IMG/VR virus record: IMGVR_UViG_3300037091_000121
Coordinates: 3,203-67,202 of that record
Length of the DNA stretch: 64,000 nucleotides
Direction: 5' to 3' (one strand)
Source: a virus
The notes under the pieces are model-generated. The model made no database searches and had not been told where the DNA came from. It saw only the letters and a list, made by a program, of their open reading frames with translations. Shown in pieces: positions 29,075 to 50,156 of the stretch. A program made the translations under genes and the position numbers. Numbering within the stretch: position 1 is the first letter of the stretch; each line of letters starts with the position of its first letter.

Positions 29075-32000
29075 CTAGCCGAAGATTGAGCGCAGAACCT
29101 CTCGGCCGCAGTCCGTAGCGTAGTAGTAGTGTTCGGGTGCGGTGCGATAGAACGATATCCATCCCTTCATAAACAATCGGTAGGTGTCGTGATACTCTTC
29201 GGGCAGCACGCCGAACCCAAGGGCTCCGGCCGAGGTTCTAATCTTGCCGAGGAGGTCAATCTCACTCTGCGGAACCGGCTCCGCACCGTTGGCGGATCGC
29301 TTGGCGTTGAAGGTGTTGAGGTCACGTTCTGCACAGGTCATCATCGGTTCGTCTCCTTCTTAATCGGGTGGGCTTGCTTGCCCTCGCAATTACAGTATAC
29401 CGATCCGGCCCAGGACATGCATTCCCCCCGGTGTAATAGTTAAACCTTGTAAGCACCAACGCCCAGCACGAAGTCTTTCCAGTCCTTGGTGAGCCTGTAA
29501 TCTCCAAAGGAGCCAAACACGCGCTCATACTCGCCGGCCAGCTCGAGGATCGTGAACCCAGCAGCGAGCGCCTCTATGGGCTTCTCAAACCACTTGTCGT
29601 TGGTGTCGAACCATTCCTGTATACTCATTGCCTCATCCTCCTCGTGCTTGATCCGGGCCAGGGCGTCAGTCACCTTGTCACTAGTCAGCCATTCAGCAGC
29701 AGTCATCATCGTCTCATCCTCCTGGGTTGGTGGGTCAGTGACACCATAGTATACCGGGATGGGGTAGGACATGCATTCCCCCTGGTGTAATACCTGGGGA
29801 ATGCAGCACCGTGCACGCACTGGGGCTCTCCTAATCCAGGTATGCACGAAACGAGGGCTCTCCTAATCCAGGTATGCACGAAACGAGGGATCATTGGTAT
29901 CTAGCCAGTTGTCGAACGATTGCGTTGTGATCATCGGCCTTCCTCCTCATATATGCGTATAACGATCACACCAAAATCAGAAGCCCATTGTTCCGCCTCT
30001 GCTCGGGTAGAGAATTGGAAATTAGCCTTCGTTGCTGGCCGTGTTTCTGACTTATAGATCAGCTTCCATTTAGCCATTGTTGTTTCCTCCACTGCATCCT
30101 ACCGATCCGATCCATGATATGCAACGCCAAGGTGTAATATCTACCTTCTCGGCCTACTCATTCAATCCTTCCCAAACCCCTTCGCTTTGCCTTCATCCAT
30201 CGCAGCGCCACGGTCACAGGGCATTGTCTTTGGCCCTACGGGTGCCCTCGCTAGCTCGGCCAAAGAATTTGACACCAAGACAAGAGATCTAGGCCCTGGC
30301 ATTTGCCTTGCCCTTAAAGGACCTTGCCATACAAGCGCCCGGAGGGCTTCGGAGGTCTTTCTCCGCGCCCTGCTAACGCAATGACTGCAGATCCTTGCAT
30401 GTGGTCGCTGCGGCTTCCGACACGCTCCATCCTCTCTGCCGGGACCTTGTCCCTAACACCCCTTTAGACAGGCACGGAACTGCACTCGGTTTGCCCCATC
30501 TACAATTGTAAATCTACTCACCGCGCTCGTCCGCCGTCATGGCCTTCTTATGAGCATGCCACGCCTCATCCTCAACTCGATCAGCTTCCGATTGGGCGAT
30601 CCACGCCTCCTCGGAAAGCTTATCTACGTCCTTGTATTTGGCAGTCAGTGCTATGGCCTCTTCCAATCCCTTTTTCCATTCCGCATGCTTCCTAGCACGA
30701 CTAGGGCTTCGAACCTTCTCTCCCGACGGTGCAGCAGTCCTCACCTCATCATCATCCGGGCGCAGGTATCGGTGCTCCTCCTCGGCAAGAAGGTATTCCT
30801 CGATCATTGGCTTCTCCTTCTTCTGGTGTCGGCCAGAGTTCGGATGCCGAGTGCTCTGCTTCCCCGGATCCCCCAGCGGGTCATTGACACGCTGACACAG
30901 TTCCTCACGAGACAGGCCAATGACTCTGATCCAGTCCTTACCGTGCTCGACGGTGTATCCCTGCTCTCGATAGTCGGCAGTCATCACTCCCACCCAAAAC
31001 TCTGGCAGGCCATTAAGATACGCGCTGGGTTTGTAGTTCCTCATGCCTATAATCCTCGAGAAGAGTAGTCCTTATCTATAGCGGTCCAATCGAAAGGATC
31101 TACAGTGATAACTATCTTATCGCCTTCCTCATCCTCTTGGCTGCGTGCAGACAGGGATGCCTCTTCGTCAGGTTGTGCCCACTTCACCATGCGCTTTCTC
31201 TCCTCTGCCTTCAGCTCGGCCAGGACCGCCGGGAATCTACGAAGTTCGGCCAACAGCGCATCATCCAGGGGCATGCCAAAGTCAGCCCACTCCATCCCAT
31301 CATCGGGTAGTTCTGGGGTATCCATTAGAACTTCACCACCGGAGCACATGGCCCAAAATCGGGATAGGTGTTCCTGCTAGTGTTCTCCACGCAGTAGGCA
31401 TGTTTGGTTCCATATCTCTCATCAGCCACGTCCTCGTCAATACAGGCGTGAACCTCATCCATGGAATAGACATAATACGGCCGGCCCAGTTCGGTCCAAT
31501 CCTCACCACGCTTGACGAGGAGAAAGATAGCAATCGCCGGCGGTTCAGTATCGCTCTCGCACCATCCGCACATTAGGTCAGCACCGCATCCGCCTACATA
31601 CTTCCCGTGCTTGCAGTATCCGTCTCTCATAGTATTATCCTCCCGTGGTCCCTGGCAGGTCATTCACCCGCACTTCATACTACCGATTCAGCCATCTATT
31701 ACAAAGCCCTTGTGAAGATCAGAACTTCACCACCGTCTGATACTGCTCGGCCAGATCGTTGCCGGCCCTTGCCAATTGTGCAGCTATGGTGCGCTGGTCC
31801 TGTGTCTGCACGGTGACCCAGACGTGGTTGGAGTGCATCCAGATCCCGAGGGACACAATGGCCGACGTAGCTGCGGTCAGCAGTAGGTAAGTGATACCAG
31901 ACTTGTTCACGACATCTCCTCCATTGGCATTGCAGTTTCCCACAATGATTTTGACTCCTGTTCCTTAAGGAACTTCCGCCACTCCAGCATCGGCCCGATC

Positions 32001-34661: not shown

Positions 34662-34900
34662 GCTACCAGAGACCCCATAATGAGCCTGCCCGCCCCCAGA
34701 GCATCCGCAACAGCATCACATATGAACCTGACCGCCAAAACATGCCGGTTCAAAAGTGCTGTAGGGTCCCTCGGTGGGTGTCAGAGGCAATCCTCCAATT
34801 CGCAGAGATCCACAATCAAAGTGAATCGGCCGTGATGAGAACAGCGTTAATGGACTTTGCTTCAGGGTTGCTTGAAAACAAGGACAGGGTTGAGCCGTGA
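34658..34900 (+). CDS. Ribbon-helix-helix-like regulator
   Basis: CRVPRWVSEAILQFAE...SESAVMRTALMDF. Confidence 0.55.
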   Translation: MSYQRPHNEPARPQSIRNSITYEPDRQNMPVQKCCRVPRWVSEAILQFAEIHNQSESAVMRTALMDFASGLLENKDRVEP

Positions 34901-34985
34901 TTGCTCAACCCTGTCCTTCCATACCCTGCCCGACCGGGCCACACCAGACCTAGCCATTCCCCGCCCCGCCCAGCCATTCCGTACC
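34880..34985 (-). ncRNA. Family-1 pentamer guide-like RNA A (13 GGH-NN units + 16-bp hairpin)
   Basis: GGTac GGAat GGCtg GGCgg GGCgg GGAat GGCta GGTct GGTgt GGCcc GGTcg GGCag GGTat. Own promoter 35023-34995; hairpin 34918-34880. Confidence 0.85.
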
Positions 34986-35019
34986 CAACACTATAGTATA
35001 CCTAGATGAGGGTTGGTTG

Positions 35020-35667
35020 TCAATCCCTCAAAATCTCACAACTGCAAACCTGAAACCGTCCATAGCTAGGGCGAAAATCACCCACTCCGACCAGCTTTCC
35101 CGCTTGTGTAAGCACATCCCGAAGCACTTGCGGTTCGATATACTCTGGCGTCAACACAAGGAAGATGACTTTCGCCCTCCAACCTTTCTCAACCGCCGGC
35201 CGCTGCCGTGTGATGCCGTTACGCTGAACCACAACTCGGCGCTGATCGAGATAGCTCCAATCCGAGAGGGTTTTACCCGCCAGAGTGATAGGAGCCAGTT
35301 CGGTTTCCACAATCAGACCTGCTTTGAAGAGATCCATTGCGCTCTTTCTTGGTGAGCGAGGGTCTTGCCGAAACTTGGCTGCCCAAACGCAAGCCATTCG
35401 CAAATACTCTCCCGGCAATGCAATCTCGCCTTTCTCCGTTCGGTATACGTAGCTGTTCACGTTGTCCGACTTCTTGGCATCGCTCCCCTTGGCTGCTTTT
35501 GACTTCTCCTCTACTGCCTCACAGTTCCACCGATGGAATAGAATGGGTGTCGTGCCCTCAACCTCCACCTCGCAGCGATAGGGAAACGCCAAAAGATCCT
35601 CTGCGCCGTTGGAAACCTCCTCCAGCGCTGGCATAACATTACGACCATTCAATTTTGTAGCTACCAT
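35020..35667 (-). CDS. RAMP/Cas7-fold-like RNA-binding protein 1 (Vipr-like), 215 aa
   Basis: VEGTTPILFH, IALPGEYLR and the Gly-rich C-terminal loop VGVGDFRPSYGRF parallel RAMP motifs. Start placed at ATG 35667 (AAAGGA RBS); the ORF-track extension is the repeat array. Confidence 0.75.
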   Translation of the reverse strand: MVATKLNGRNVMPALEEVSNGAEDLLAFPYRCEVEVEGTTPILFHRWNCEAVEEKSKAAKGSDAKKSDNVNSYVYRTEKGEIALPGEYLRMACVWAAKFRQDPRSPRKSAMDLFKAGLIVETELAPITLAGKTLSDWSYLDQRRVVVQRNGITRQRPAVEKGWRAKVIFLVLTPEYIEPQVLRDVLTQAGKLVGVGDFRPSYGRFQVCSCEILRD

Positions 35668-35691
35668 AATAGTTTTCCTTTCAAAAAACCC

Positions 35692-35826
35692 TAACCTTAC
35701 CAAACCCCACCGGACCGGGCCGAACCCTACCACTGCATGCCACGCCGCACCCTTCCGGACCATGCCGATCCTTGCCTCTCCGGGCCGCGCCTCGGCTCAC
35801 CGCACCGCTCCTCGCCACGCCACACC
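35692..35826 (-). ncRNA. Family-1 pentamer array B (27 GGH-NN units) in the leader of RAMP-like gene 1
   Basis: 25 of 27 pentamers begin GG; strict 5-nt phase. Confidence 0.85.
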
Positions 35827-35834
35827 TCTAGTGT

Positions 35835-35967: not shown

Positions 35968-36021
35968 CCCCTAAAAATAGGGCTTGCTTCGGCGATCTCA
36001 TCCCGGTATACTATGGTGTGA

Positions 36022-36131
36022 GGCAGGGCGTGGCGGGGACAGGCGGGGTGAGGCGCGGCCTGGTGCGACGAGGCGAGGAATGGCAAGGCATGGGTATCTC
36101 ACCCCAAGGAGAAACCCTTGGGGTGAGATAC
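36022..36131 (+). ncRNA. Family-1 pentamer guide-like RNA C (14 units + 16-bp hairpin)
   Basis: GGCag GGCgt GGCgg GGAca GGCgg GGTga GGCgc GGCct GGTgc GACga GGCga GGAat GGCaa GGCat; promoter TTGCTT-N17-TATACT at 35984-36012. Confidence 0.85.
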
Positions 36132-36154
36132 AATTATTAGGAAGGGGTCATAAA

Positions 36155-36694
36155 ATGGCTATAGATCAAAGGCATGTTGTAAACATAAACGGTAAACTTT
36201 ATCTCAAATACTCCGGTGTCCTTGAAGCGGCGACAGAGGCAGGATTGAAATCTTTGGAAGTTGAGATCATCCAGTTGCCTTGTGCAGATAATGGAAATAC
36301 AGCAGTTTGCAAAGCCATTGCTATTCTAGAGAAAGACGGGGTAGTAAGACGGTTCATAGAGATTGGAGATGCTTCTCCTCTCAACGCTTCTAAAATGGTT
36401 ATCAATGCCACAATCCGCCTTGCATCCACAAGAGCGAAAGGACGGGCGCTCCGAGATGCGGTTTGTCATGGCGAGGCTTTGAGCGATGAAATCCCAGAGT
36501 TAGAGCCAGCTCCACAGAACCGAGAGTGGACGCCGGCCAAAGAGGCAAGCCCTCTCGTTCGCGATCAGTTTTGCCAATGGGAGGGATGCGGGGTGGAACT
36601 CCCGCCGGCGGTAGTCACGTTCTCCAAAAGGAAGTATAACCTGAGTCTCTGCCGCGACCACCAGCTGGCAACGGATGCCAAGAAAGCACAATGA
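36155..36694 (+). CDS. Rad52/22-like single-strand annealing protein with C-terminal Zn-ribbon
   Basis: INGKLYLKY.G.L...GDASP.N....A.IRLASTRAKGRALRDA; start reassigned to ATG 36155. Confidence 0.65.
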   Translation: MAIDQRHVVNINGKLYLKYSGVLEAATEAGLKSLEVEIIQLPCADNGNTAVCKAIAILEKDGVVRRFIEIGDASPLNASKMVINATIRLASTRAKGRALRDAVCHGEALSDEIPELEPAPQNREWTPAKEASPLVRDQFCQWEGCGVELPPAVVTFSKRKYNLSLCRDHQLATDAKKAQ

Positions 36695-37224
36695 TGAACT
36701 GGCAAGAGAGATGTGATGCGAGGAAGCGAATAGAGACCACCTTGAGCGACGCGCTGCATTCTACTTACGCAAGAGATGCCGCCCCGCTGTGGCGAGAAAC
36801 GGCACGTCTTGCGATGGCAATGGCTGCCGAGTGCGAGGATCAGTTTCAGCAGAAGGTTGTCCTCACCATCCCTGGGGATGTGGCCAGAGACCTCTCTCCT
36901 AACCTGCGGCTGCACTGGAGAGAAAGAGCCAATAGAACCCATAGGTGGAGAGCGATGGCTCGACTAATATGGCAGTCTGAAGGAAGCGTCCGTTTTAAGC
37001 CGGGGGTTTCAATTCATATCACTGTAAGACGTGGAAGGCTGGTGGATCGAGATAATTGCATCTCGTCCTGCAAGGTCATATTAGACTCGCTGTGGGGTGA
37101 TGACGGGATGCTAGGTGCGGATGATGCAAGGTGGGTGAAGTCTATCGAGGTAATTCAGGAGACAGGTGGGAAATGGACAAAGCATCCGGAAGTCAAAGTC
37201 GAAGTGGCAGGGGAAGTCGAATAG
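36691..37224 (+). CDS. RusA-like Holliday junction resolvase
   Basis: LSPN...HW..R, DRDN....K..LDSL, DDARWV motifs. Confidence 0.65.
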   Translation: MMNWQERCDARKRIETTLSDALHSTYARDAAPLWRETARLAMAMAAECEDQFQQKVVLTIPGDVARDLSPNLRLHWRERANRTHRWRAMARLIWQSEGSVRFKPGVSIHITVRRGRLVDRDNCISSCKVILDSLWGDDGMLGADDARWVKSIEVIQETGGKWTKHPEVKVEVAGEVE

Positions 37225-37568
37225 CCCATCTGAGCAACGAGGATCTGATCGTTAAAGATGAGCCGGTTCGAATTCCTAGCCGGAAAGGTTACTCAAAGAC
37301 CAACCCTGGGCCAGTGTTCGTTTGGTTCTGCCGGAATAAGCACACGTCTAATATGCTTATCGAGGCATTGAAGCAAACTGCATATGGCGAGTGGAAATCA
37401 ACTCCCAGGCAGGCTAGATCTCACGGGAAATTCAGTGGATGCGCCTGGGTATTAAAGTCCTGGGGGCTGACAGAAGCTGAGTATAACGCCATGCAAAGGG
37501 TCGCTGTTAAGTTAGACCCTACTGCGTCGAATATGGTTTGGGATGAGGCGGGTCAGTGCTATGTTTAG
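37131..37568 (+). CDS. Hypothetical protein (true start probably near 37221)
   Basis: ORF track; contains KQTAYGEWKST, matched by guide D. Confidence 0.55.
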   Translation: MGEVYRGNSGDRWEMDKASGSQSRSGRGSRIAHLSNEDLIVKDEPVRIPSRKGYSKTNPGPVFVWFCRNKHTSNMLIEALKQTAYGEWKSTPRQARSHGKFSGCAWVLKSWGLTEAEYNAMQRVAVKLDPTASNMVWDEAGQCYV

Positions 37569-37605
37569 GGGATTGACAACCAAGGCTCATTCCGGTATAA
37601 TATGG

Positions 37606-37709
37606 TGCAAGTCCAGGCACGGCCAGGCTAGGCGGGGCGAGGATGGGCAAGGCATGGCACGGCAAGGTGAGGAGCAGCAGCTTGGATACCTAATATCCAG
37701 GCTGCTGCT
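37606..37709 (+). ncRNA. Family-1 pentamer guide-like RNA D (13 units + hairpin)
   Basis: TGCaa GTCca GGCac GGCca GGCta GGCgg GGCga GGAtg GGCaa GGCat GGCac GGCaa GGTga; promoter TTGACA-N17-TATAAT at 37573-37601; terminator hairpin + TTTT. Confidence 0.85.
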
Positions 37710-38325
37710 ATTTTCAGGCAATCAGTGCTATGTGTAGACCTACTTGGATCGACACTGGGGTCCACTATCGCGGCCGAAGGGTTGTGGTGAGTCAATACGA
37801 TGGCACGATGGCTTTACAAGACACTGGAGGAAACCTGGAGAGCGTTACAGAGGAACTGGAGGATCTTGTTACCGACATCCTGATAATGGTTGAGCAGGTT
37901 AAGTATATGGACAAGGATGTGCTTCAGCAGCAACTTGAAGATAACAGAAGTAAGGGGAATTGATATGAGTGTAATAGATCATCACGCAGAGGAGAGGTTT
38001 CATTCTATGGTTCTGCTGGCGACATCAGAACGCGTTAGGCGCATACTCACGGCTGCTCTCCGGCGTCCACCCACTCCTCGCGAGATGACCCGAGCTATGC
38101 GGGCAGCAGAGGAGAATGATATGGTGGAGAAAGGGCTATGATAACGAAGCATCAGCTTATCACTGCTTTACAGGAATGTCCTGATAATGCCCAGGTGTTC
38201 TTCTGTGTTCCGCACCCGGAGAGTGTTGAGGACTTCCTAACCGCTTACCTGGCCCAGGTGGAATACGCTCACGATGAGGACTGCACTCCGTTCATCCGGG
38301 TTTATCTAGAGTCGGAGAAGGGGCT

Positions 38326-39141
38326 ATGAAGAGCAGCTTTTTGGCGTGGGCACCATTCCTATCGTCGTCTATTATGTCAGGGATTTGGTACTTCATCGGG
38401 TGGAAAGATGGGCGTAGTTTTGAGAGAAAGAAGTTTAACAAAAAGTTCGCTCCTTGGAGAGATGTGCCCCCTGATTCCAAACGCATAGATATGACAGATA
38501 AGGTGGGGGGCTATTGTGTTAAATGGTGGAAGCCTTCCAATCGCGGCTTCACAATTTTGGAATTACTCGTAGTAGTGGCAATCATAGCGATACTTATGGC
38601 CCTTCTTTTCCCGGCTTTCGCAGCAGCAAGGAGGCGAGTGCTGCAAACGTCGTGTGCTTCCAATCTTCGTCAGCTTGGTATGGCCATCTCGATGTATGCC
38701 CAGGACCACGACGGCTATCCGCCTATTGGTGGATACAATTACATTCCTCCAGCCCCTGCCCCGCAAGTATGGAACAGGTCGGACTGGGAAGACGGCCTGG
38801 TTGCGCTTGCTTACGTCAATAATTATAATCTATTTCGATGTCCTTCTGCCTCCAACAAGGATTACCGTTCAGCTTATGGAGTGAACCGATGGATTTTAGG
38901 ATGGGGGATCTCACAGTTATTAGACGCACCACCGTTCCCTAGCAATACTCTTTTGGCTACTGAAAAACAAGGTTCCGATTGGCCGGTTTGGTTACCTACC
39001 GAGCAGACAGGGAATCCTTACTACTTCCCCTTGGACCCCCGTCATAACAATCAACTCAACATTCTTTTCGTGGATGGACACGTAGGAAAGTCCATCATAG
39101 GGGAATTGATCGAGAGCAGCAACATCATTTGGAGATGGTGA
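38326..39141 (+). CDS. Prepilin-type N-terminal cleavage/methylation protein, DUF1559/H-X9-DG family (start uncertain)
   Basis: RGFTILELLVVVAIIAILMALLFPAF..AR....SCASNLRQLG.A..MYAQD, C-terminal RHNNQLNILFVDGHV. Confidence 0.9.
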   Translation: MKSSFLAWAPFLSSSIMSGIWYFIGWKDGRSFERKKFNKKFAPWRDVPPDSKRIDMTDKVGGYCVKWWKPSNRGFTILELLVVVAIIAILMALLFPAFAAARRRVLQTSCASNLRQLGMAISMYAQDHDGYPPIGGYNYIPPAPAPQVWNRSDWEDGLVALAYVNNYNLFRCPSASNKDYRSAYGVNRWILGWGISQLLDAPPFPSNTLLATEKQGSDWPVWLPTEQTGNPYYFPLDPRHNNQLNILFVDGHVGKSIIGELIESSNIIWRW

Positions 39142-39168
39142 TTGGCACGGTTCTTGTATATACTATGG

Positions 39169-39268
39169 TGCTAGTAGGGATGTTGCAATGCCGAGATGGG
39201 TGTTGCATGGCGGGTCTGGGAATAGCAAATCACAGTAGAAGGGTGGATGTGTAGGCATCTACCCTTCT
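39169..39268 (+). ncRNA. Family-2 guide-like RNA E (12 NNY-NN units + ATCACAG + hairpin)
   Basis: TGCta GTAgg GATgt TGCaa TGCcg AGAtg GGTgt TGCat GGCgg GTCtg GGAat AGCaa ATCACAG; upstream TGGCAC-N5-TTGT and TATACT. Confidence 0.8.
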
Positions 39269-39433
39269 TATATTTTAGAGAGAAGATGGAATGAATCACC
39301 TTGTCTACCTTTGGAGGCGCTATCGGGGCCGATGCTACCGATGCGGCAGGGTTCCTCCTCGCAGCCGAGGTAGGGTCTACTGCGAGGAGTGCTTTGCCAT
39401 CATCGTGCAAGAGTTCAAGATGAGTATGTCCAA

Positions 39434-39646
39434 GTGAGTGACACACAGATCATTAAAGGAGACTGTAGGGAGGTGCTTCAAACTCTCCCATCAGAGTCGG
39501 TTCACATGGTAGTTACCTCTCCGCCATGCGGAACCGTTGGCCGCGTAGCAACCCGGCTCGGACGCCGATCCATCTTGATAGAACTCAATCTAGAGTACGC
39601 AGAAATGGCGGCCCGAAGAACTTCCCAGAAAGGACTTGGGATCTGA
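39434..39646 (+). pseudogene. Internally deleted N4/N6 DNA methyltransferase
   Basis: The N-terminal GDCREVL..LP.ESVHMVVTSPP is joined directly to the C-terminal GT...VA.RLGR..I.IELN.EY; the catalytic Y and the DPF.G motif are missing. Confidence 0.75.
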
Positions 39647-39678
39647 TGTCAAGGCGCAACCATGTGAGTTTGGTTGAG

Positions 39679-40143
39679 CTACGTGAATGTCACATCACAA
39701 ACGAAGTTGAGGCTACCTCCGACGAAAATCACAATTGTCGGGGAGGTCCCTAGCGGTAACAATAATGGGCACCCGGCCGGATTGGTTCCGGGAGGTGAAA
39801 CGGCCGGAGGGATCGGAGGTTGGTGCGGAGTTATGAGAATACCGACATCGCCTGCAGAACCCTTGAGGGTCAATTCTGGCGGTATATTTGGAAGTGGAGG
39901 GATCGGTGGGACGGTAGGGTTAGGGATGGTTGGAGGTAGCTCAAGTAGCATTGCAATGGAGCCAGTCGGAATTTGGATGACGTTATTTCCTGGAACCAAT
40001 GTGAGAGATTGATGTGAGCCGGTGAGTCCTGCCCCTGGAGTAAATCGGACAGGCAGAAGCGTTCTGTCTATTACGACCCCACCGGAGTCGATTACGGTAA
40101 CGGCAACCTTCACTTCACACAATGCACTCATTAGCTTACCCAA
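39679..40143 (-). CDS. Pro-rich hypothetical protein
   Basis: ORF track. Confidence 0.5.
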   Translation of the reverse strand: MGKLMSALCEVKVAVTVIDSGGVVIDRTLLPVRFTPGAGLTGSHQSLTLVPGNNVIQIPTGSIAMLLELPPTIPNPTVPPIPPLPNIPPELTLKGSAGDVGILITPHQPPIPPAVSPPGTNPAGCPLLLPLGTSPTIVIFVGGSLNFVCDVTFT

Positions 40144-40649
40144 GACCTTCCTTTGACGACATTTCGGATCTGTATGTTGCTAACCCCATATTCACGCCCC
40201 AGGCCCCTATACGTGACGCCTCCTGCCGAGAAGCGCTCTCGGATCTCTAAAACCTTCTTCTCATTGAGCTTTGCCGAAGGGTGCGCCTCACCTCGGCGTC
40301 TACGCTCGGGTGGGCAGTGTCCTTGAACCCACATCTCCGGGTGCCGTTGCCATATATTTCGACCCTTGGATGCGCAGTCCTTGGCGTTGTCCGATCCTGT
40401 CCCGAGGAATAGATGGGCAGGGTTACAGCAAGGCGGATTGTCGCAGCGATGCAAGACCATAAGCCTGTCGGGAATGTCACCGAACTCCAGAACCCATGCT
40501 ACCCGATGAGCGCGCCACTGTTTTCCCATAAACCTGAATCGCCCGTAGCCTTGAGGCACGCAGGCCCTCGTCCAATTCCAGCACACATCATTATCCCCAT
40601 CGGGAATGTCCACCCCGGACCAAAAATAATCAGCAGTGTTCAGTCTCAT
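40131..40649 (-). CDS. HNH homing endonuclease
   Basis: CWNWT...GYG.F...AHRVAW...VLHRCDNPPCCNPAHLFLGT..DN + HTH tail. Confidence 0.9.
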   Translation of the reverse strand: MRLNTADYFWSGVDIPDGDNDVCWNWTRACVPQGYGRFRFMGKQWRAHRVAWVLEFGDIPDRLMVLHRCDNPPCCNPAHLFLGTGSDNAKDCASKGRNIWQRHPEMWVQGHCPPERRRRGEAHPSAKLNEKKVLEIRERFSAGGVTYRGLGREYGVSNIQIRNVVKGRSWVS

Positions 40650-40690
40650 GCCTATATTGTATCACGTGAAGTGAAGCTATGTCAAGTACC

Positions 40691-43600
40691 TTATCCTCCT
40701 GATTGCTTCGTTAGTGATGTAATCTTGTCGCCAAGGGCTCGATATAACAGATATGCCCCCTTGACCTTCCTCTTGGCATCATCGGTCAACTGGTTCTTGG
40801 CATCGTAACTATTCGCTGCCTTCATAATCTGCGTTGAATAGTTGGAGGCTGACTTCATCCTGAAGGCCAGCTTCCCTCTATCAATAATCCTGGCGCTGGA
40901 TATATCCGGCTGCTGCGTGTAAGGGTTGTCACTGGAAGAATACCCTTTCTGTATACCCTGGACATACGATCCGTAACCCTTGAATTTGTCCGTCAGGGTT
41001 CCTACCATCGCCTTCTTGCGTGCGTCAGTCATTGGTGGTCCGTAGACTGGTAGTCCAAACGCTTTCATCAAGGAATGAAGCCTGGTTTCCGGAACAGCAT
41101 ATTCAGAAGCAGAATCAGTTACTCCCTCATTTGATTTCCCTATTTTGGAAGCATAACGAATCAGTGAGGCCACGGTAGGAGAATTTTTCTTGGCGAATTC
41201 CCATTGCTCCGGGTAAATACCGAGTGTGCTAAGCTCTGGAGATCCGGGCTCGTGGAGTTCTCTGCCAGTTCCTGCATCTCGGTTAGACGCCAGCGCATAT
41301 ATAGCGGGCCCTGCCAGAGGGATAGAGAACAGCTTGTCAGACCAGGTTCTCTGGTCTCCTCCTGAATCTGGCCGTGTCGGTTGCATCATATCAAGAAAAG
41401 GAGTGAACGGGAACCACCTCCCAATATCAACGACATTCCCTTTCCCGATGGGAACAGTCATTGCCCCTCGCTGATACCTTGGCCTGTCCTCTCGATCATC
41501 CTCTGAACCGGGGTTCTCCGCCTCTATATCTCGCCGAAGGCGTGGATACCTTGCCAACAAGTCAGGACGGCGAATCGCGGTCCTGATAGCGCTAGCCATC
41601 GACTTCGTTGGATACGCATTGAAAGCCCATAGCCCTGACCGATTCAAAGCCTCTAGTATAGCAGGCTGGTCAGCATAGTCGAACAGATGATCCTTTACCA
41701 ATTGAGCTGCCGCCTCGTCACCAATCTTACCTCTGGATGCTTCGAACAACGCAAGCTTTACCACCTGGTCAGCAACTGCATGCGCTACTGGACCGGTAGA
41801 CATGAAGGCTTTGTAAGCATCCCTCGGGTTGGTGAACTCCGGTGGAACATATATCCTTCGGCCACCAATGCTCACGAACTTACCAGCCCCGGCCAGGTTT
41901 GCTGCTGACCTTCCACCCGCCCCTGATTCTATCTGGTCCATCACGCTGCTTCGCCAGGTGGGGAAGTGTTCGTCTAGAGTCCGCATCGCCTCGGTGTCTA
42001 CACCCTTTCGCAGCCAGTTCGTAATATCCCGTCCAGCGGTAGCCAACGGCTTTGCCAACCTCAAGGCGCCTAGATTGGCAGTCTTCATTCCAATCTCTGC
42101 CTGATTCAGACGGGAACCAATCGAGGTTAATAGGCCAGTCGGGTTCATTGTGAGCATAAAACGCTTCACCTCAGAGGGGAGATGCTGAATAGCTTTCTTT
42201 ACACCTCGCACCATCTCGTCCTGCTCTGCCTGAACCGCCCGTTTCGATATCCCCTGGACAGCCCTCAAGACAGGGCCAGGAACCTGCTTGCCAGCTAGTG
42301 GGCCATACTTCGGCTCGTCAGGGACCGCTAACCATCCCCCTTTCGGTTTCTCGCCCTTACCGAGAGGTTTGGCGAACGAGTCAGCAACCTCAAGAGCTTG
42401 GGCGTTGGCCGCTGACTTTATGGCCCTCCGGCCTTCCTCTGAACCTGCCGGAGCCTCTATCTGCACCAACCCATGTTCATGCTTCGGAACCGACTTCCTA
42501 TCGGCGGTAGAAGCGAAGTAGTTCAAGGAGCCTTTTCTGGTTCCCTTGGGAGGTCCTTTCTCCGCAATGATCTGCTTTAACTCCTCGGAGGTGATCCCCT
42601 TCGTTGCGGCCATCTTCTCGGCCTTTTCAGGATCAACCTTGAATACCCCACGTAGCATCTCTTGGAACGACCGCGTTCCCTTGGCTACTGCCATAGGGCC
42701 TGCCGGTGCTGTAGCGGCTGTCTTGGCCTCCTGGAGTGGCTTTGGGGTTTCTGTAGGGAGTGCTGGCTTCGGTGTCTCTACAGGCGCTACAGTGGCGTCC
42801 TCTGCCTCTTTTGCTAGCTTCCTGTTCCAATGGTCCTCAATCCCCTGCGCCTGCTTGGGATTGTTCTTGCGCAATCGGCTTATCTGTTTCTGGATGTATT
42901 CCGGGATGCCCTCTGTTGGGCTGCTTGCAGACTGACCCCGCTCGGTTTTGGTTGGCTCTACGGTAGATGTCTTCGTAGATACTGGTTCCGAAGGAGGCTT
43001 TGCCTCTGGATGGAGTTGACGGACTGGCTTCTTGGCCGGGGTTGGCTTGGTCGTCTCTACTCCTTGCTTCTCTGACCATTGCTGTGCTCGTTTCTGCAGA
43101 TCTTCTGCGGTTGGTGTTTTGGCTCCCTTGGCTACAGTTTTCTCCTTGGGGGTAGCATGTTTCTCCTTGACCGCGACGAGCTTAGGCTTCTCCGAAACAG
43201 TAGCAGGAGGATGTTTCTCTCCAATGACTTTAGGAACTTCAAGGTTCCCTGCCTCTGCGTCTCTTGCCAAGCCCTTGATGTGAGACCTAACCTGCTGCCC
43301 AATAGCTCGTATCTCTTCATCGGTTGCGCCGGGATAGTAAGCCCGAAGAAGGTGCATATAGTGACTGTCAGCGCTGGATGGTTTGGACTGCGAGACTATA
43401 TAGGCAGACTTGTCCAATTCGTTATCGAATATCAGTGTAAATAATTTCTTCCCATATCCGTAGCGAGGCTTTGCGGATGCCAGTTGAGCAGGAAGCGAAA
43501 AGCTCTCACCGGGTTTAATGTGCGCGGTGGATGGGAGAGAGACTAATGGCTTCGCGCCCTTGGCAGGAGGAGTGATAGGCTTGCCATAGGCATCTAGGAA

Positions 43601-45754
43601 GCCCGCTTTGACCGGAACAGGTTTATCTGGTTCTATAGGCGGATGAGAAGGCAGTCCAGCAGCTTCCCTTGCTTCTCTTTGCTCCTTCAGAACCTGCCAT
43701 TGGGGCTTTGGCATAGGCACATGCTCAACAGGAGGTGCCGCTGGCGCGACGTGAGGAGTCGCTGTAGGCGCTGAAGGAGGAACGGTAGGAGTAACCGTTG
43801 GTGAGGTGCCAGGAGCCGCAGGAGGGGCCTCTGGTAGCGCTGCTGGTGGATGGGGGGCATTGGTATGGGCCGGGTGAAGTGCCTCTGGGGTATGGGCTTC
43901 CGGCTGCATCCCAGGGAAGCCTTGCTCCTTGGTCCAACCCATCACCTTGTGGAAGAACCCTCTTCGGAACGCGGTTCGCTCTGGAGATGCAGTTTGGTGC
44001 AAAGGCCCCGATAGCTTCCTGTCTCGAAGGGAGTTATGTCGAAGAAGTATCTTGAGGTTTTTGTCTGCCTCCGCTATGGCCTGATCCCCAAGTTCTTTAA
44101 CCAGGTTAGGATCAACTCCCAATTTCTTTGCGTGTTCTATACCTACATCGGGTGAGTGAATATATGTGTCAATCGCATCTGCCAGCCGACTGCGGCCGTG
44201 GTTCTCGTTTCTATGGGCTGTCTCTAATGCTTCCTGCTGCGGATCATCCCCAGAGGATTTAACTACCGCGTTACGTATCTTCGTCCCCACCTTGCCAGCA
44301 GAGAGCAGGTTAGTCGCTATGTTGTTTCTTTCTGCTGCCCTTACCGTTCGGCCCTCCGCTGCTTTCTTGCCAATCCCCACCCAACCGCCCGCTACATCTA
44401 AATGACCAGCCTCTGTTGGATACTTCTCGGCAATCTTTGCACCACCCTTCGCCAATGCTTCTCCAAGGATGGGCTTGGCTACCTTTGCTATCTTACCCGT
44501 AATTGCACTTACCCCATGCCCAGTTGCCACGTTAACAGGGTTGAATTCCCAATCGAGCAGATAATCTGCTATACCTAGCGCTTTATAGGTAAGAGTGTTT
44601 CGCTTGACCCCCAATCCTTCCGCACCAACCCGGAGAGCGTTAGGAGGCACTGCGCCACCTTCAGAGACCACCTTCAGGGCTTTGCCTACCGCTTGAACAG
44701 GATTAGGACCTCCCCTTCCCTGACCTCTCTTAACCGCTGCCGATATCCCTGCAGGATAGACGCTGGCCCCCATATCAAACAATCTCTGCACCGCTCCACC
44801 GATCTTAACTGGCAGCTCGGTGGCTCTCTCAATCCTGTTTCTCGCCGGAACTGACATCCTGCCAGTGTAAGGCTCAATAGAAGCCTCTTGGGGTTCTCCT
44901 GGCTTTGGTGGAGCGGAATGTGAGGTCTGATGCGGAACACCCTGATACATTGGGGACCCAGAGTAATGCTCTCTTTCAGTAGCGGGGTCGATAATGTGCG
45001 GCGTCCCATTGATCGTCTTGTAGTATTGGATCTTGCCAGTGCGATCTCTAAACGCCCTTCCGCTTACATGAGTGGCCCCAAACGATGCCCAAGGGTATCT
45101 CCTGATCGATTGAGGGACATCAGGCGTGAACTGAACTCCAGTAGGAGACGCAGCAGCAGGAGGGGCGGTGGCTCTACTTGGCGAAGTCGGAGTGAATAGA
45201 TGACCAAATGATGTCTTTTTAGGAGTGCTAGGGGTTTTAGGAGTGCTGGGAGTAGGGGGCGGCGGAGATTCTTGTTGAGTGGGCTCTGGTGACGTGAAAA
45301 GATGCCCAAAGGTAGGAGGATCTCCAGCGCCCTTTGATCCAACAAAAAGATGGCCGAGACGGGGAGGATCTCCAACACCTTGACTGCCTACATAATCAAA
45401 GTGTACCGGATCGACTTCCCCTGCGAACGCCCACCCATGAGGGGCAAGTATTTTAGCTAACTTCTTTTGTTCTTGTAGATTACCGCCTGCGGAGACATCC
45501 CAAGCTAGGCCCTTCTGGTGTTGGCTCTCTCCGGGTTTGGCTACAGGATTAGGGTTGTTTCCCCTGCCGGCATAGAGACGCTCTTGCATTTCGCGGGTCC
45601 GATGACCGCCGTACGGACTCATGGTCAGATTAAGGCCCGCTGCTTCAGCGTCCTTAATGCCCCGCATTGCCGCCGCCCTTGCATCTGGGTGCATACCCCG
45701 AAGCATCCCTGGCGTTATCGGCCTATTGTCATCTATACCTGGACCTGGCATCAA
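40691..45754 (-). CDS. Large internal virion/ejection protein with N-terminal M15-type peptidoglycan peptidase
   Basis: RTREMQERLY...AKPGESQHQKGLAWDV...DPVHF; 1687 aa with a low-complexity middle. Confidence 0.75.
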   Translation of the reverse strand: MMPGPGIDDNRPITPGMLRGMHPDARAAAMRGIKDAEAAGLNLTMSPYGGHRTREMQERLYAGRGNNPNPVAKPGESQHQKGLAWDVSAGGNLQEQKKLAKILAPHGWAFAGEVDPVHFDYVGSQGVGDPPRLGHLFVGSKGAGDPPTFGHLFTSPEPTQQESPPPPTPSTPKTPSTPKKTSFGHLFTPTSPSRATAPPAAASPTGVQFTPDVPQSIRRYPWASFGATHVSGRAFRDRTGKIQYYKTINGTPHIIDPATEREHYSGSPMYQGVPHQTSHSAPPKPGEPQEASIEPYTGRMSVPARNRIERATELPVKIGGAVQRLFDMGASVYPAGISAAVKRGQGRGGPNPVQAVGKALKVVSEGGAVPPNALRVGAEGLGVKRNTLTYKALGIADYLLDWEFNPVNVATGHGVSAITGKIAKVAKPILGEALAKGGAKIAEKYPTEAGHLDVAGGWVGIGKKAAEGRTVRAAERNNIATNLLSAGKVGTKIRNAVVKSSGDDPQQEALETAHRNENHGRSRLADAIDTYIHSPDVGIEHAKKLGVDPNLVKELGDQAIAEADKNLKILLRHNSLRDRKLSGPLHQTASPERTAFRRGFFHKVMGWTKEQGFPGMQPEAHTPEALHPAHTNAPHPPAALPEAPPAAPGTSPTVTPTVPPSAPTATPHVAPAAPPVEHVPMPKPQWQVLKEQREAREAAGLPSHPPIEPDKPVPVKAGFLDAYGKPITPPAKGAKPLVSLPSTAHIKPGESFSLPAQLASAKPRYGYGKKLFTLIFDNELDKSAYIVSQSKPSSADSHYMHLLRAYYPGATDEEIRAIGQQVRSHIKGLARDAEAGNLEVPKVIGEKHPPATVSEKPKLVAVKEKHATPKEKTVAKGAKTPTAEDLQKRAQQWSEKQGVETTKPTPAKKPVRQLHPEAKPPSEPVSTKTSTVEPTKTERGQSASSPTEGIPEYIQKQISRLRKNNPKQAQGIEDHWNRKLAKEAEDATVAPVETPKPALPTETPKPLQEAKTAATAPAGPMAVAKGTRSFQEMLRGVFKVDPEKAEKMAATKGITSEELKQIIAEKGPPKGTRKGSLNYFASTADRKSVPKHEHGLVQIEAPAGSEEGRRAIKSAANAQALEVADSFAKPLGKGEKPKGGWLAVPDEPKYGPLAGKQVPGPVLRAVQGISKRAVQAEQDEMVRGVKKAIQHLPSEVKRFMLTMNPTGLLTSIGSRLNQAEIGMKTANLGALRLAKPLATAGRDITNWLRKGVDTEAMRTLDEHFPTWRSSVMDQIESGAGGRSAANLAGAGKFVSIGGRRIYVPPEFTNPRDAYKAFMSTGPVAHAVADQVVKLALFEASRGKIGDEAAAQLVKDHLFDYADQPAILEALNRSGLWAFNAYPTKSMASAIRTAIRRPDLLARYPRLRRDIEAENPGSEDDREDRPRYQRGAMTVPIGKGNVVDIGRWFPFTPFLDMMQPTRPDSGGDQRTWSDKLFSIPLAGPAIYALASNRDAGTGRELHEPGSPELSTLGIYPEQWEFAKKNSPTVASLIRYASKIGKSNEGVTDSASEYAVPETRLHSLMKAFGLPVYGPPMTDARKKAMVGTLTDKFKGYGSYVQGIQKGYSSSDNPYTQQPDISSARIIDRGKLAFRMKSASNYSTQIMKAANSYDAKNQLTDDAKRKVKGAYLLYRALGDKITSLTKQSGG

Positions 45755-45758
45755 TCCC

Positions 45759-47852
45759 CTATCGTCCCTTTGGAGCCCCGACGACCACTTTCTCGCCGTC
45801 CACCTCCATCCAGTAGCTTTTCCCTCCGATCCTGGCTATCCCTCGGTTTCCAGTAGTCCCCCAGACGTTTGTTACCCCCTTGGGGAAGGATAGCCCCTTC
45901 CACTCCCCTGGCACTCTTGACGAGAAATTGATTGTCTCGTTATTGGCGACAGCGTTTCTCCTGAACTCTTTGTCCGTCATCTTGGCGGTGGGGGCGCTTG
46001 GCGCTGCTGTCTGGGCACCCATGCCAAGGTGATTCTTCTTGATCCGAGTTATGAGGTCTGAAAAGTAAGGTTTTGATTTCCCATCAAGACCCTTAAGGAT
46101 ATCTGTAGACGAAATTCCTCTACCTATGAACGCCTGCCATACCTGCCACTCATTGCTCCCTTTCTTGAATGGGTTTGGTTCAGCCCTAGTCTTATCCCAT
46201 AGCGAGGCATCAATACCTTTCGGAGCCGGAACATTCAGCTTGGGGGAGAAATCTTGCCCTTGATAGGTATACTTTGCTCTGTCTTCAGGAGGAAGAGGCT
46301 TTCCTACTGCCCTGGCAGGAGATGCAGTTGCTCGTGCTGGATGTGCCGATCTAGGCGTAGCCTCGGTTCCTGGGAATGCCGGAACAGCAGTGTCCTTCGT
46401 CACTGGAGGAAGGACAGGAGGGCCACCAGCCGCCCTTCTCGGTGCAGTAGCCCCTTGCTTCGGCTGATTCGCTTGGTAGTATGCATAGTCCAGCTTCGTC
46501 TTCACCGAGTCCTTCAGATCCTCTCGCTGCGACGGAGTAGAACGCTCCCATACTCGCTTGAACGCCCCTGCTCTTGCCTTTATACCGTCAGGAGTAGCCG
46601 GGTCATAGTCCGGGGCTGGAGGCTGCTGGAAACCTTGCGAGTGCATACCAGTAAGTATCTTCATCGCAGAGGTGCGTTCCTTGCTAGTACTGCCCTTCGT
46701 TCCCGGAGCCGTCATCGCAGCTCCCATATTGCGATGGAGATACTTCTGGAGCCCAGGGTCCATAGTTAGACCAGCAGCCTTATATACTGCATGTAATTTC
46801 CTGATCTTGGAGGCTCTCACATCCGGGTCCATCGCCAGGAGCTTTTTCTCGTCACCTAGCTGGCTCTCCAGTTTGGATGCTTCCCTGCCCGCTGCTGCCT
46901 TCTGGTCAATCCCGGATCTGCCTCTAGGGTGGGCCTCTCGATACCGATCTGACCTTTCGCGCTCTCTTTGCCCTTGCTGTGCCACATCTAGATGGCCTCT
47001 GCCTAACTCAACCTGGGCATCTCTATACCCTTGTACAGCCCTAGCGTTGATCTCTGCGTCCGAAAGCCTTTCGCCAAACAGCTTCTTTTCGTATGCCCTC
47101 CAGTCTTGCAGGTTCATCTGCGCCTTTTCAGCATTAGAGAGACGCTTATCAGCACGCTTTGCTGCTGCTTCTGCTGCTGTCTGCTTCACCGTTGGCTGGG
47201 TGGCAATGGGAGCCTTTAATCTGGAAGGGGTTACAGGTGCGGGTGGAGTAAAAGTGGCGGTTGCTGGCGAAACGCCGTCTGTGGCTGGAGGAGGCGTTCC
47301 TGTAATCGAAGGAGGAGGTGCCGGAGTAGAGGTTGTATCATACATTCCTTCCGTTCCAGAAATGTTTAGACCTCGGGCCTTCCCTTTCCAGGTCTCCGCT
47401 TCAGCGTCAGCCTGATCTGCAAGGCCATTGTAGTATTCCTGGTATTTTTGTCTATCAGCAGGAGCCATACCCATTACCTGGGCAGATACTGCCATCTCTC
47501 GGTAATGTCTCGATGCAAGCCCTGATTGGTTGGCGCCATTCGTGTAACGTCCTAATAGAGTATCATTAGTTCTATCGGTTTCACCTTTAACACGACGCTT
47601 CTCTTCCTCACCCTGGTATGTAACCCGATCCGCTTCTGCCTTCTGCTGATCTGCTATCCTTTGCTTCTCAATCTCTCTCATGGAATCGACGTTCTTCTGC
47701 GCCTGAAGCTGCCTCGCTGCTTCTTGGTTCTTCTCTGCCTCCGCTTGTTGCTGTTGGGCCTGTGCCTGTTCCCCCATGGCCTTGCCGACCATGAGGCCCT
47801 GAGTCACCTGGGCAGCGGCACTGAGGAAGGACGATAATCCAATTGACGCCAT
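45759..47852 (-). CDS. Putative ejection protein
   Basis: Gln/Ala coiled-coil N-terminus; lies next to the large virion protein. Confidence 0.55.
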   Translation of the reverse strand: MASIGLSSFLSAAAQVTQGLMVGKAMGEQAQAQQQQAEAEKNQEAARQLQAQKNVDSMREIEKQRIADQQKAEADRVTYQGEEEKRRVKGETDRTNDTLLGRYTNGANQSGLASRHYREMAVSAQVMGMAPADRQKYQEYYNGLADQADAEAETWKGKARGLNISGTEGMYDTTSTPAPPPSITGTPPPATDGVSPATATFTPPAPVTPSRLKAPIATQPTVKQTAAEAAAKRADKRLSNAEKAQMNLQDWRAYEKKLFGERLSDAEINARAVQGYRDAQVELGRGHLDVAQQGQRERERSDRYREAHPRGRSGIDQKAAAGREASKLESQLGDEKKLLAMDPDVRASKIRKLHAVYKAAGLTMDPGLQKYLHRNMGAAMTAPGTKGSTSKERTSAMKILTGMHSQGFQQPPAPDYDPATPDGIKARAGAFKRVWERSTPSQREDLKDSVKTKLDYAYYQANQPKQGATAPRRAAGGPPVLPPVTKDTAVPAFPGTEATPRSAHPARATASPARAVGKPLPPEDRAKYTYQGQDFSPKLNVPAPKGIDASLWDKTRAEPNPFKKGSNEWQVWQAFIGRGISSTDILKGLDGKSKPYFSDLITRIKKNHLGMGAQTAAPSAPTAKMTDKEFRRNAVANNETINFSSRVPGEWKGLSFPKGVTNVWGTTGNRGIARIGGKSYWMEVDGEKVVVGAPKGR

Positions 47853-47863
47853 TTCAAATCACC

Positions 47864-49015: not shown

Positions 49016-49079
49016 CTTGCGCCTCCTCCAAAACTAGAGGGGTTGACAATCAACCCCCACCCCGGTATACTCCATTGTT

Positions 49080-49173
49080 CTACAATCGATGCATGTCATG
49101 GCTCTGAAACGCCTTGCCGGTCCAGGAACGGCAAATCACAGCGGATGGGTTAGGGTTTTCCCTTTCCCATCCG
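49080..49173 (+). ncRNA. Family-2 guide-like RNA F
   Basis: Promoter 49043-49071; ATCga TGCat GTCat GGCtc TGAaa CGCct TGCcg GTCca GGAac GGCaa ATCACAG + CGGATGGG/CCCATCCG hairpin. Confidence 0.75.
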
Positions 49174-49872
49174 AACCTTCATCAATGCTGGAGACGACTC
49201 CGCCCGCTCTCTCTTGATGTTAAGTTCGAACGGCTTTGGCTCTGGTGCCTGCCTTGGCTCTGACCGAGGAGGCATATCATTCGATACCGTCGGTCGCTCT
49301 CTCCCTGCTTTGGCAGGATTGGCTTCAGGAGACTTCAAGGTCATAAACGGGTTCAGAGACCTTGGCTTCCCGATTGGCTTCAATGACTTCTCGTTAGGGA
49401 GGTAAGCCTTCGGGCCACCAGGGCCACCTCGCTTACGGGGCGATTCCGGGTTGTTGCTAGGGATCTTCGCTGACGGTTTTTTCCTTCTGGTGTAAACTCT
49501 TGGAGTTGTTTCTGGCGTTAGGGCTTGAACCCCTCCGGTCAATGGCACGGGCGGATCTCCTGACCCAAAAGACACAGGCTTGACCACTGGCTTTCGCCCT
49601 TTCGTTTGACCTAGAGGCTTGTTAAGCAAAGGGGCACTTACTTTTCCAAAACCACCCCTTGTAGGATGAAGACCTTTAGGACCGTTTGGCCCTGGCGGCT
49701 TCATGGCGGGCGCATCGCCAACCCCAGACATCCGACCAAGCACTGACTTCACCTCGGCAGGCTTGCCCTTGACTTTGACGGATAGCTTATTACTATCCTC
49801 TGGCTTCTTCTTGGTGGCTGGTCGCTTCGGGCTTCCGAAGTCTGTTGGTGCTGGCATAGTGGCCCTCCTCAT
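49150..49872 (-). CDS. Basic Lys/Pro-rich protein (start probably ATG ~49857)
   Basis: GAGGAGG RBS before MPAPTDFG; shares the GxGD[AP]P motif with the ejection proteins. Confidence 0.6.
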   Translation of the reverse strand: MRRATMPAPTDFGSPKRPATKKKPEDSNKLSVKVKGKPAEVKSVLGRMSGVGDAPAMKPPGPNGPKGLHPTRGGFGKVSAPLLNKPLGQTKGRKPVVKPVSFGSGDPPVPLTGGVQALTPETTPRVYTRRKKPSAKIPSNNPESPRKRGGPGGPKAYLPNEKSLKPIGKPRSLNPFMTLKSPEANPAKAGRERPTVSNDMPPRSEPRQAPEPKPFELNIKRERAESSPALMKVRMGKGKP

Positions 49873-50077: not shown

Positions 50078-50156
50078 GAATCAGGCGTTCCTGGGCAGGT
50101 CACGTCGTTGATCGGCTCTGCAGGGCGCAGTCAATCACAGGTGGCCTTCGGGCCAC

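Follow-up and report, generated by a model that had tools for sequence, protein, structure and literature searches.

A putative VIPR guide RNA encoded far from its protein and beside a pilin-like gene that it nearly matches in an uncultured peat phage

In an uncultured phage from peat, a pilin-like gene is followed on the same strand by a short periodic element, unit E, which is very probably a trans-acting guide RNA (vrRNA) of a Viral Interference Programmable Repeat (VIPR) system whose protein gene, vipr2, lies 11 kb away. The window, meaning the whole stretch of DNA analyzed, covers 64,000 bases of one virus contig, which is 67,202 bases long and has repeated ends (IMG/VR record IMGVR_UViG_3300037091_000121, positions 3,203 to 67,202), and coordinates refer to it (Table 1). 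The contig encodes a portal protein, a helicase, HNH endonucleases and a 1,687-amino-acid virion-type protein, and at least half of its sampled words are contained in seven of the ten peat-metagenome DNA runs listed. Megablast of 36000-52000 found no close relative among 50,697 phage records, and the window contains no tRNA. The pilin-like gene was assigned by Pfam matches to N_methyl (E 2.6e-8) and DUF1559/SBP_bac_10 (E 4.8e-6), and its true start is likely the ATG at 38491.

VIPR is a CRISPR-related form of RNA-guided DNA silencing described in three bioRxiv preprints from 2026, including one on cryo-electron microscopy (cryo-EM) (10.64898/2026.04.26.720927). As the main texts present it, the system consists of a Vipr protein and vrRNAs of about 100 nucleotides, each with a constant 3′ tail behind 9-16 YNNGG repeats; double-stranded DNA is read by the NN pairs, after each of which one base, usually the wobble base, is skipped, and binding silences transcription (10.64898/2026.04.26.720920). 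The same source reports satellites and prophages as natural targets, calls a natural target at a match of at least 80%, found no guide reaching 80% on its own contig in the clades that its self-target controls covered, distinguishes seven types, and lists the repeat variants NNNGG, YNNNG and NNNNG as well as arrays interspersed with hammerheads (10.64898/2026.04.26.720920). Another preprint describes solo vrRNAs on F5 satellites and on VIPR-null SUSP1-like phages, which borrow the protein of a rival, and phage vrRNAs aimed at the vrRNAs of rivals, where a self-match lower than the rival-match avoids autoimmunity; the guides of SUSP1 match satellites at 89% on average (10.64898/2026.10.15.759431). 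The main text of the cryo-EM preprint makes no mention of mismatches or of a seed (10.64898/2026.04.26.720927).

Unit E spans 39171-39268. The handle reported in the initial annotation, ATCACAG at 39229-39235 followed directly by a hairpin of 14 base pairs (39237-39268), is indeed present, and the stated spacing of 27 nucleotides after the gene needed correction: the stop codon of the gene ends at 39141, and from there it is 18 nucleotides to the -10-like box and 30 to the first pentamer. Among the eleven pentamers, position 1 is a pyrimidine in eight, position 4 is G or T in nine and position 5 is G in eight, while only three end in the canonical GG. This arrangement gives a periodicity score of 25/33, compared with 9-17 in the other registers, and 4 of 5000 shuffles reach 25. 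In all six units of the same family (family 2), the 5-nucleotide register richest in G at positions 4-5 is the one phased with CAAAT CACAG. Over the 68 pentamers of the family, C occupies position 1 in 44, G or T position 4 in 54 and G position 5 in 45, with positions 2-3 mixed, so the repeat can be written YNNKG (KGY/NN in the notation of the preprints). When the 67-kb genome was scanned on both strands for this periodicity without regard to the tail, 14 regions were flagged, among them E, the other five family-2 units and four canonical YNNGG tracts around a second protein gene, vipr1. Two plus-strand stretches reached the threshold (22/27) without a recognized tail, at 63015-63059 and 36437-36481; the latter overlaps the near-target of the 36.0-kb guide.

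By itself, the heptamer ATCACAG shows no enrichment in the window (seven copies, 9.4 expected), and the octamer is modestly enriched (six copies, 2.4 expected; 5 of 100 shuffles reach six). Six of the seven heptamer copies lie on the plus strand in the longer form AATCACAG, with a hairpin directly 3′ whose stem sequence is specific to the copy. The weight of the tail motif comes from strand, hairpin and phase jointly. The tail CAAAUCACAG and hairpin of E are common to the five vrRNAs around vipr2, and together with the relaxed pentamers they bear out the earlier placement of E in a second guide family. Outside this phage, a like tail is found in IMG/VR locus L099. There, the stretch upstream of a Vipr gene (34% identity, residues 68-193) contains at least four AUCACAG-plus-hairpin units, which come after CNNNG pentamers, and two more that carry AUCCCAG.

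The order of -10 box, ATGGTG and first pentamer seen in E recurs in two family-1 vrRNAs (36007-36018, 37596-37607), and a promoter scan near E returned TTGGCA-16-TATGGT at 39142-39169. From leader to T-run, E measures about 100 nucleotides. Its hairpin and TATATTTT form the only terminator-like site in 37400-39800, and to judge by this context the tail hairpin probably also acts as a terminator. No Rfam family was found for E (best snoZ6, 16 bits, E 0.8), nor did a repeat finder detect a CRISPR-type repeat array around it, 5 nucleotides being the sole periodicity; repeats of 24-40 nucleotides with unique spacers near cas genes, as in a CRISPR array with its CRISPR RNAs (crRNAs), are thus not what lies here. 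Conversely, E has four of the features by which a vrRNA is recognized, namely a Vipr gene in the same element, at least four pentamers, a shared structured tail and a target predicted at 80% or more, although in the phage's own genome. Solo vrRNAs are defined by a carrier without vipr and accessory genes, and the 67-kb contig encodes two Vipr paralogues; E is a distal, not a solo, vrRNA.

The protein that the initial annotation had paired with the second guide family, as a RAMP, is the 201-residue product of vipr2, and that assignment stands. Its family numbers 1,122 cluster representatives at E ≤ 0.001, and it matched no Pfam family. A profile of 60 vipr2 homologues matches PDB 36pp chain D, "SUSP1 Vipr protein", with E 9.7e-16 (one solved structure). 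In an AlphaFold (AF2) model (pLDDT 95), the top Foldseek matches are Csm3/Cas7 chains of type III and type VII CRISPR complexes (E 8e-7, TM about 0.55). By profile and predicted fold, the product is a Vipr protein with a RAMP (Cas7/Csm3-like) fold. No relatives were found in viral_contigs with the single protein as query, while alignment A4 as query retrieved 29 loci there; 19 of these 29 contained no ribozyme at the Rfam gathering threshold. Readings of E as a nut-like antitermination site, an RNase site or a CsrA site, as a minus-strand terminator (hairpin and CTGTGATTTG) and as a type III toxin-antitoxin RNA were set aside after the protein had been identified as Vipr.

The claim that E has no RAMP gene nearby did not survive, as vipr1 (35020-35763, minus strand) lies 3.4 kb upstream of E. 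The cognate protein of E is nonetheless Vipr2, 11 kb distant as originally proposed, because the vrRNAs of vipr1 carry other tails. Since the RAMP-fold Vipr of E is encoded at 50303-50908, E must work in trans, again as proposed. Together with its four canonical YNNGG tracts, two per strand, vipr1 makes up a second VIPR system; the long hairpin tails of these family-1 units differ from those of family 2 and among themselves.

The code of E was read from the dinucleotides at positions 2-3 of the ten pentamers in 39171-39220, allowing one free target base between pairs. As had been claimed, it decodes to the YGVNRWILGW segment of the adjacent gene: 18 of 20 positions match at 38875-38904 on the sense strand, the pairs falling on the first two positions of each codon, and this is the best site for the guide on either strand of the 67-kb genome. 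Both mismatches fall on a first codon base, one in the Ile codon and one in the Leu codon. With the unmatched eleventh pentamer included, the score is 18/22 (82%), vs. 18/20 (90%) over ten. Guides with shuffled pair order reached 18 in 1 of 300 trials and, in a second set, in 0 of 60. As a control, the register of the dinucleotides and the length of the skip (0-2) were varied, and all 14 alternatives gave only 14-15. In both E and the 37.6-kb unit, the match begins at the first pentamer after the -10 box and ATGGTG. A sense-strand match with the skip at the wobble base resembles the natural targets in the main texts of the preprints. Contiguous similarity between E and the pilin-like gene was also tried (Smith-Waterman 11-12, shuffle mean 11.6) and was rejected as the wrong test for a gapped code.

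All ten vrRNAs of the phage were treated alike, by taking the best 10-unit match of each in its own genome and counting it as neighboring within 700 nucleotides. The best or tied-best match fell in this range for six of the ten; with shuffled guides this happened in 38 of 600 trials. Among the six, A and C merely tie at background score and are to be discounted. In the remaining four (E, B and the 36.0-kb and 37.6-kb units), the single best site lies in the adjacent gene, on the sense strand and in codon phase. By score, only E and B stand out (reached by 0 of 60 and 1 of 60 shuffles, and by 1 of 300 and 6 of 300 in a separate test); the score of the 36.0-kb unit is reached by 29 of 60 shuffles. 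The improbable part of the pattern is position rather than score. All four neighbor matches lie between 80 and 90%, and none is perfect.

Strain variation was assessed from assembled DNA contigs of four runs, which report presence only. An X3 contig of 2,281 letters spans E and its near-target, and none of the best-supported differences listed for it falls there (718 others are unlisted). In another X3 contig, 48936-49198, containing unit A, is replaced by 970 other letters, and a further one skips 37547-37798, containing the 37.6-kb unit. Peat contigs also skip or replace 38132-38321 and 36574-36692, so that two of the four variable segments are vrRNA units. Guide cassettes thus appear to turn over between strains. 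The earlier suggestion that a guide moves together with its gene is strengthened by the four of ten best matches in a neighboring gene.

The pilin-like protein has 777 homologues, the closest 96% identical. In an alignment of its close subfamily (eight sequences; seven proteins 48-96% identical), the target block is the most conserved part, and Y, G, N and the final W are invariant. The guide decodes to Y-G-V-(N/K)-R-(W/C)-V-(I/M)-G-(W/C), and the address of E is likely this conserved motif of the pilin-like gene family. The 96% relative shares W-I-L-G-W with the phage. Two other homologues, P0155 (Y-G-S-N-R-W-V-M-G-W) and P0156 (Y-G-V-N-R-Y-V-M-G-W), carry V-M, which fits the guide where the phage has I-L, and each differs at one other residue. 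Judging by codon logic from the protein, the P0156 gene may match guide E at up to 19/20. In the wider family the Y-G-x-N core is common, and the motif beyond it is not conserved; among protein fragments shorter than 118 residues, there were no candidates with the motif. Only one distant locus in viral_contigs is related to the pilin-like gene. A search of 185,579 species genomes matched at least 600 stretches, and 568 of those listed encode a relative; among the matches listed, identity is at most 45%, and the nearest are mostly from Chthonomonas and other Armatimonadota.

From these observations we infer how the system might operate. Unit E would most likely yield an RNA of about 100 nucleotides, either transcribed from a start at ATGGTG or just past it, downstream of the -10 box, or excised from a read-through transcript of the pilin-like gene. 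The 3′ end would lie at the tail hairpin, which would also serve as terminator. Vipr2 protomers would assemble along the pentamers, holding the K-G-Y positions and presenting two variable bases each, with the CAAAUCACAG-hairpin tail as the common handle of the complex. The complex would then read two of every three bases of double-stranded DNA, at an address corresponding to Y-G-V-N-R-W-V-(I/M)-G-W of the pilin-like DUF1559 subfamily, and its binding would block transcription of the target gene. Most likely, the guide would be aimed at the homologous allele of some competing element, for instance a prophage or another, related phage, and the phage's own allele would be spared by two changes at read positions (V to I, M to L). 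Tight linkage would keep the guide and the immune allele together on recombination among related phages, so that suicidal recombinants are prevented.

Taken as a whole, a guide acting in trans on rival alleles and linked to an immune allele of its own is a reading for which we see about even chances. A rival allele is favored because all neighbor matches are imperfect, because homologues fit the guide at the mismatches of E, and because published systems, as far as the main texts describe them, keep the self-match below the rival-match. Several points weigh against it. At 82-90%, the match of E passes the 80% threshold of the VIPR authors, so the phage's own gene may itself be bound. The 1-nucleotide-skip rule was established on canonical GGY systems, and the repeat of E is relaxed (GG in 3 of 11). 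The -35 element of E is weak, and none of the ten listed runs that contain the phage is an RNA run. The initial annotation had suggested that the real target could be the copy of a rival phage or a host paralogue, and no allele matching better than the phage's own gene was found in our searches. The full decoded peptide occurs in none of the 120 homologues listed, and the best guide-E score across 83 loci, 80 of them DUF1559 loci from species genomes, is 15/20. As for the decoded sequence itself, for which a search had been proposed, the exact pattern gave no match in viral_contigs or genome_contigs and two in metagenome_contigs. These two are copies of one stretch with no open reading frame of at least 60 codons' worth of amino acids over the site, about the chance level for 20 fixed bases. 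The negatives of the target search are weak, because they come from exact-match searches or small samples.

Alternatively, E could direct Vipr2 to the phage's own pilin-like gene and switch it off once Vipr2 is made, so that an accessory gene would be timed or placed under a negative loop; the promoter of E, being downstream of the roadblock, would stay active. The own neighbor is the sole gene site at 80% or more in the sequences searched, the two metagenome matches lacking a reading frame. A match of 90% is within the range accepted for targets in the main texts of the preprints, where SUSP1 guides average 89% on satellites, and three other guides show the same neighbor relation. Such self-regulation would nevertheless permit a perfect match, yet all four neighbor matches are 16-18/20, and the residues fitting the guide at the two mismatches of E are found in homologues. 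Moreover, the published controls found no self-match of 80% or more in the clades examined, and self-regulation is not a known use in those texts. We hold it to be rather unlikely. A host pilin or pseudopilin paralogue as target, silenced to alter pili or secretion or to exclude other phages while the phage supplies a resistant version, is improbable. DUF1559 genes are numerous in the likely host phyla, as the at least 600 matching stretches (568 listed ones encoding a relative, the nearest from Armatimonadota) and the common Y-G-x-N core attest, but the relatives listed from the 185,579 species genomes are at most 45% identical, the best of the 83 loci scores 15/20, genome_contigs holds no exact match, and conservation in the wider family stops at Y-G-x-N.

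Two further explanations would deprive E of a target altogether. Its pentamers are the least canonical of the phage, its 25/33 is among the lower scores and its -35 is weak, as might be expected of a degenerate relic or decoy that guides nothing or merely competes for Vipr. A relic would not, in turn, retain a codon-phased match of 18/20 that is the best in the genome, and over unit and target the X3 contig shows no listed difference (best-supported differences only; 718 unlisted); a relic or decoy is quite improbable. That E simply ends the pilin-like gene, with motif, periodicity and code match all coincidental, is very hard to credit. The hairpin and T-run are the sole terminator-like site in 37400-39800 and ATCACAG alone is not enriched, but the periodicity (4/5000), the 10-nucleotide tail motif, the leader and the code match (1/300; controls 14-15) are mutually independent.

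If the preference for a rival allele is extended to the other guides, the guides of this phage could be scattered two-part cassettes rather than a central arsenal, each a guide with an adjacent own-target allele that bears a few read-position changes, similar to poison-antidote pairs or marker exclusion; we offer this generalization tentatively, as possible but short of probable. If true, the allele of a rival would be silenced in mixed infection, and a recombinant inheriting the guide would inherit immunity with it. RNA-guided silencing would then drive allele-level competition and mosaicism among related phages, and the position of a guide 11 kb from its protein would be explained. If the neighbor is an immune allele, it would provide a simple genetic rule for avoiding autoimmunity while attacking close relatives, a rule that could predict VIPR targets where rival genomes are unsampled. 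If the neighbor is instead the real target, VIPR would also be a device for phage gene regulation. The studies of VIPR have so far dealt mainly with enterobacterial and Pseudomonas phages, to judge by the main texts, and this uncultured peat phage adds a relaxed repeat type and guides scattered across the genome. VIPR itself is already known, and stand-alone vrRNAs have been described (10.64898/2026.10.15.759431). New with respect to the main texts of the preprints are a distal guide in a vipr-positive phage, near-self matches of 80% or more adjoining guides, the presence in a single phage of two Vipr paralogues that each have a vrRNA family of their own, and twister-like rather than hammerhead elements in an array.

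These last elements, each 47 nucleotides long, follow B and C in the vipr2 leader. They score 27.0 and 23.2 bits as Twister-P5, below the gathering score of 37.6, and so do not count as members of that family. Their core matches, and between the two copies P1 and P4 differ by paired changes. The strand order (closed P1 hairpin first, 3′ strand of P2 last) fits none of the three Rfam permutations; the downstream CGCAGAGCC could close P2 and pair with the loop GGC. If active, cleavage directly after the tail hairpin would release the guides. Unit E has no ribozyme, its tail hairpin being followed by the T-run instead. Twister is unmentioned in the main texts of the preprints on VIPR and on solo vrRNAs (10.64898/2026.04.26.720920; 10.64898/2026.10.15.759431).

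Downstream of vipr2, the gene coupled to it occupies the position of a vap accessory gene. Its protein has no relative in PDB, Atlas yields viral hypothetical clusters only, and a single-sequence model reached a pLDDT of 41, too low for use. Several vrRNAs are driven by a strongly conserved phage promoter type, often GGGGTTGACAA...CCGGTATACT, in which the -35 lies within a short palindrome. Shortly after E, at 39389-39646 (plus strand), lies an 85-amino-acid remnant of a DNA methyltransferase (phrog_67; Pfam N6_N4_Mtase under the cut-off) in which N- and C-terminal motifs are fused and the middle is missing; this is the most diverged part of the X3 contig, and an X6 contig replaces 39527-39630. 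Elsewhere in the window are two adjacent minus-strand group I introns (9568-9797 and 9809-10011; 89.3 and 63.9 bits, over the Rfam gathering score), both inside a repeated segment (repeat family D11), and a perfect 32-nucleotide tandem duplication at 29823-29886 (plus strand).

Table 1. Features of the unit E locus, the two VIPR systems and the associated vrRNAs (window coordinates).
Feature	Position	Strand	Evidence or remark
Pilin-like gene (prepilin N-terminal methylation motif and DUF1559)	38326-39141	+	Pfam
Near-target of guide E, ten codons YGVNRWILGW	38875-38904	+	18/20 match
-10-like TATACT (39159-39164), then ATGGTG	39159-39170	+	weak -35
Guide tract of vrRNA E, 11 pentamers of type YNNKG	39171-39225	+	first ten carry the match
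Conserved tail start of E, CAAAT CACAG	39226-39235	+	pentamer-phased
Tail hairpin of E (14 pairs, 39237-39268), then TATATTTT	39237-39276	+	intrinsic-terminator-like 3′ end
Six ATCACAG-hairpin copies	39229 (E), 49135 (A), 50008 (B), 50134 (C), 50254 (D), 51481 (F)	+	
vipr2, cognate Vipr (RAMP) protein of E, 201 aa	50303-50908	+	profile and fold; phrog_4652
vap-like gene, coupled to vipr2 by ATGA overlap	50908-51417	+	phrog_15946 only
vipr1, second, divergent Vipr paralogue	35020-35763 (match spans 35044-35577)	-	profile A2 vs. own genome, E 1.1e-17
Neighbor match of E	38875	+	18/20; pilin-like gene 38326-39141
Neighbor match of B	49467	-	17/20; gene 49150-49872
Neighbor match of 36.0-kb unit	36461	+	16/20; gene starting at 36155
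Neighbor match of 37.6-kb unit	37371	+	16/20; 18/22 over 11 units, 9 perfect; gene 37131-37568
vrRNA A	49078-49173	+	own TTGACA-17-TATACT promoter (49043-49071); antisense between two minus-strand genes
vrRNA array B, C, D in vipr2 leader	49925-50280	+	promoter 49895-49923
Tail hairpins of B, C, D	50015-50030, 50141-50156, 50261-50280	+	
Twister-like elements after B and C, 47 nt	about 50031-50077, 50157-50203	+	Rfam Twister-P5
vrRNA F	51423-51512	+	downstream of vap-like gene
Family-1 vrRNA (36.0-kb unit)	36013-36130	+	canonical YNNGG; different hairpin tail
Family-1 vrRNA (37.6-kb unit)	37602-37725	+	perfect TTGACA-17-TATAAT promoter
Further family-1 YNNGG tracts	34899-35003, 35680-35829	-	
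Conserved promoter type	17986, 29394, 29748, 30096, 33630, 34222, 34995, 35939	-	minus-strand sense
Conserved promoter type	37573, 49043, 49895, about 51530	+	

Among known systems, the closest to E are the type II VIPR systems of Escherichia phage SUSP1 and of a Pseudomonas fulva prophage, in the form given by the main texts of the preprints. As there, a RAMP protein of about 20 kDa is phage-encoded, the vrRNAs are about 100 nucleotides long, with two variable bases per pentamer and a constant structured tail, and targets are read two bases in three with the wobble skipped, usually in coding sequence. In contrast to these systems, the repeat of E is relaxed (YNNKG vs. YNNGG, although YNNNG-type variants are listed for some types), its tail is a short motif with a simple hairpin of variable stem rather than a pseudoknot, and it lies 11 kb from vipr with its best match next door in its own genome. 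Similar to the published solo vrRNAs, E is located away from vipr, is known by its repeats and family tail, and would be used in trans; unlike them, it resides in a genome that encodes Vipr, in two paralogues. The targets reported for solo vrRNAs are host REP elements, vipr genes, vrRNAs of rivals and satellites, whereas the match of E is the adjacent gene. In the hammerhead-interspersed arrays (10.64898/2026.04.26.720920), self-cleaving-type elements between vrRNAs would likewise free the guides, although those upstream of vipr2 resemble twister and not hammerhead.

Class 1 CRISPR offers a more distant parallel in its crRNA and Cas7 backbone, where a RAMP-fold protein also multimerizes on a guide with a constant handle and bases are periodically unpaired. 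VIPR differs in having no repeat-spacer array, no cas1 or cas2, no contiguous spacer and no known guide acquisition, and the information of its guides is spread at two bases per pentamer. For the linkage of guide and gene, the free-standing homing endonucleases of T-even phages provide an analogy only. These enzymes cut the allele of a rival beside their own insertion site, a phenomenon known as marker exclusion, so that the gene for the weapon adjoins a resistant copy of its own target and the two are co-inherited in mixed infection. T-even homing endonucleases cleave DNA by means of a protein, whereas VIPR presumably acts through RNA-guided silencing.

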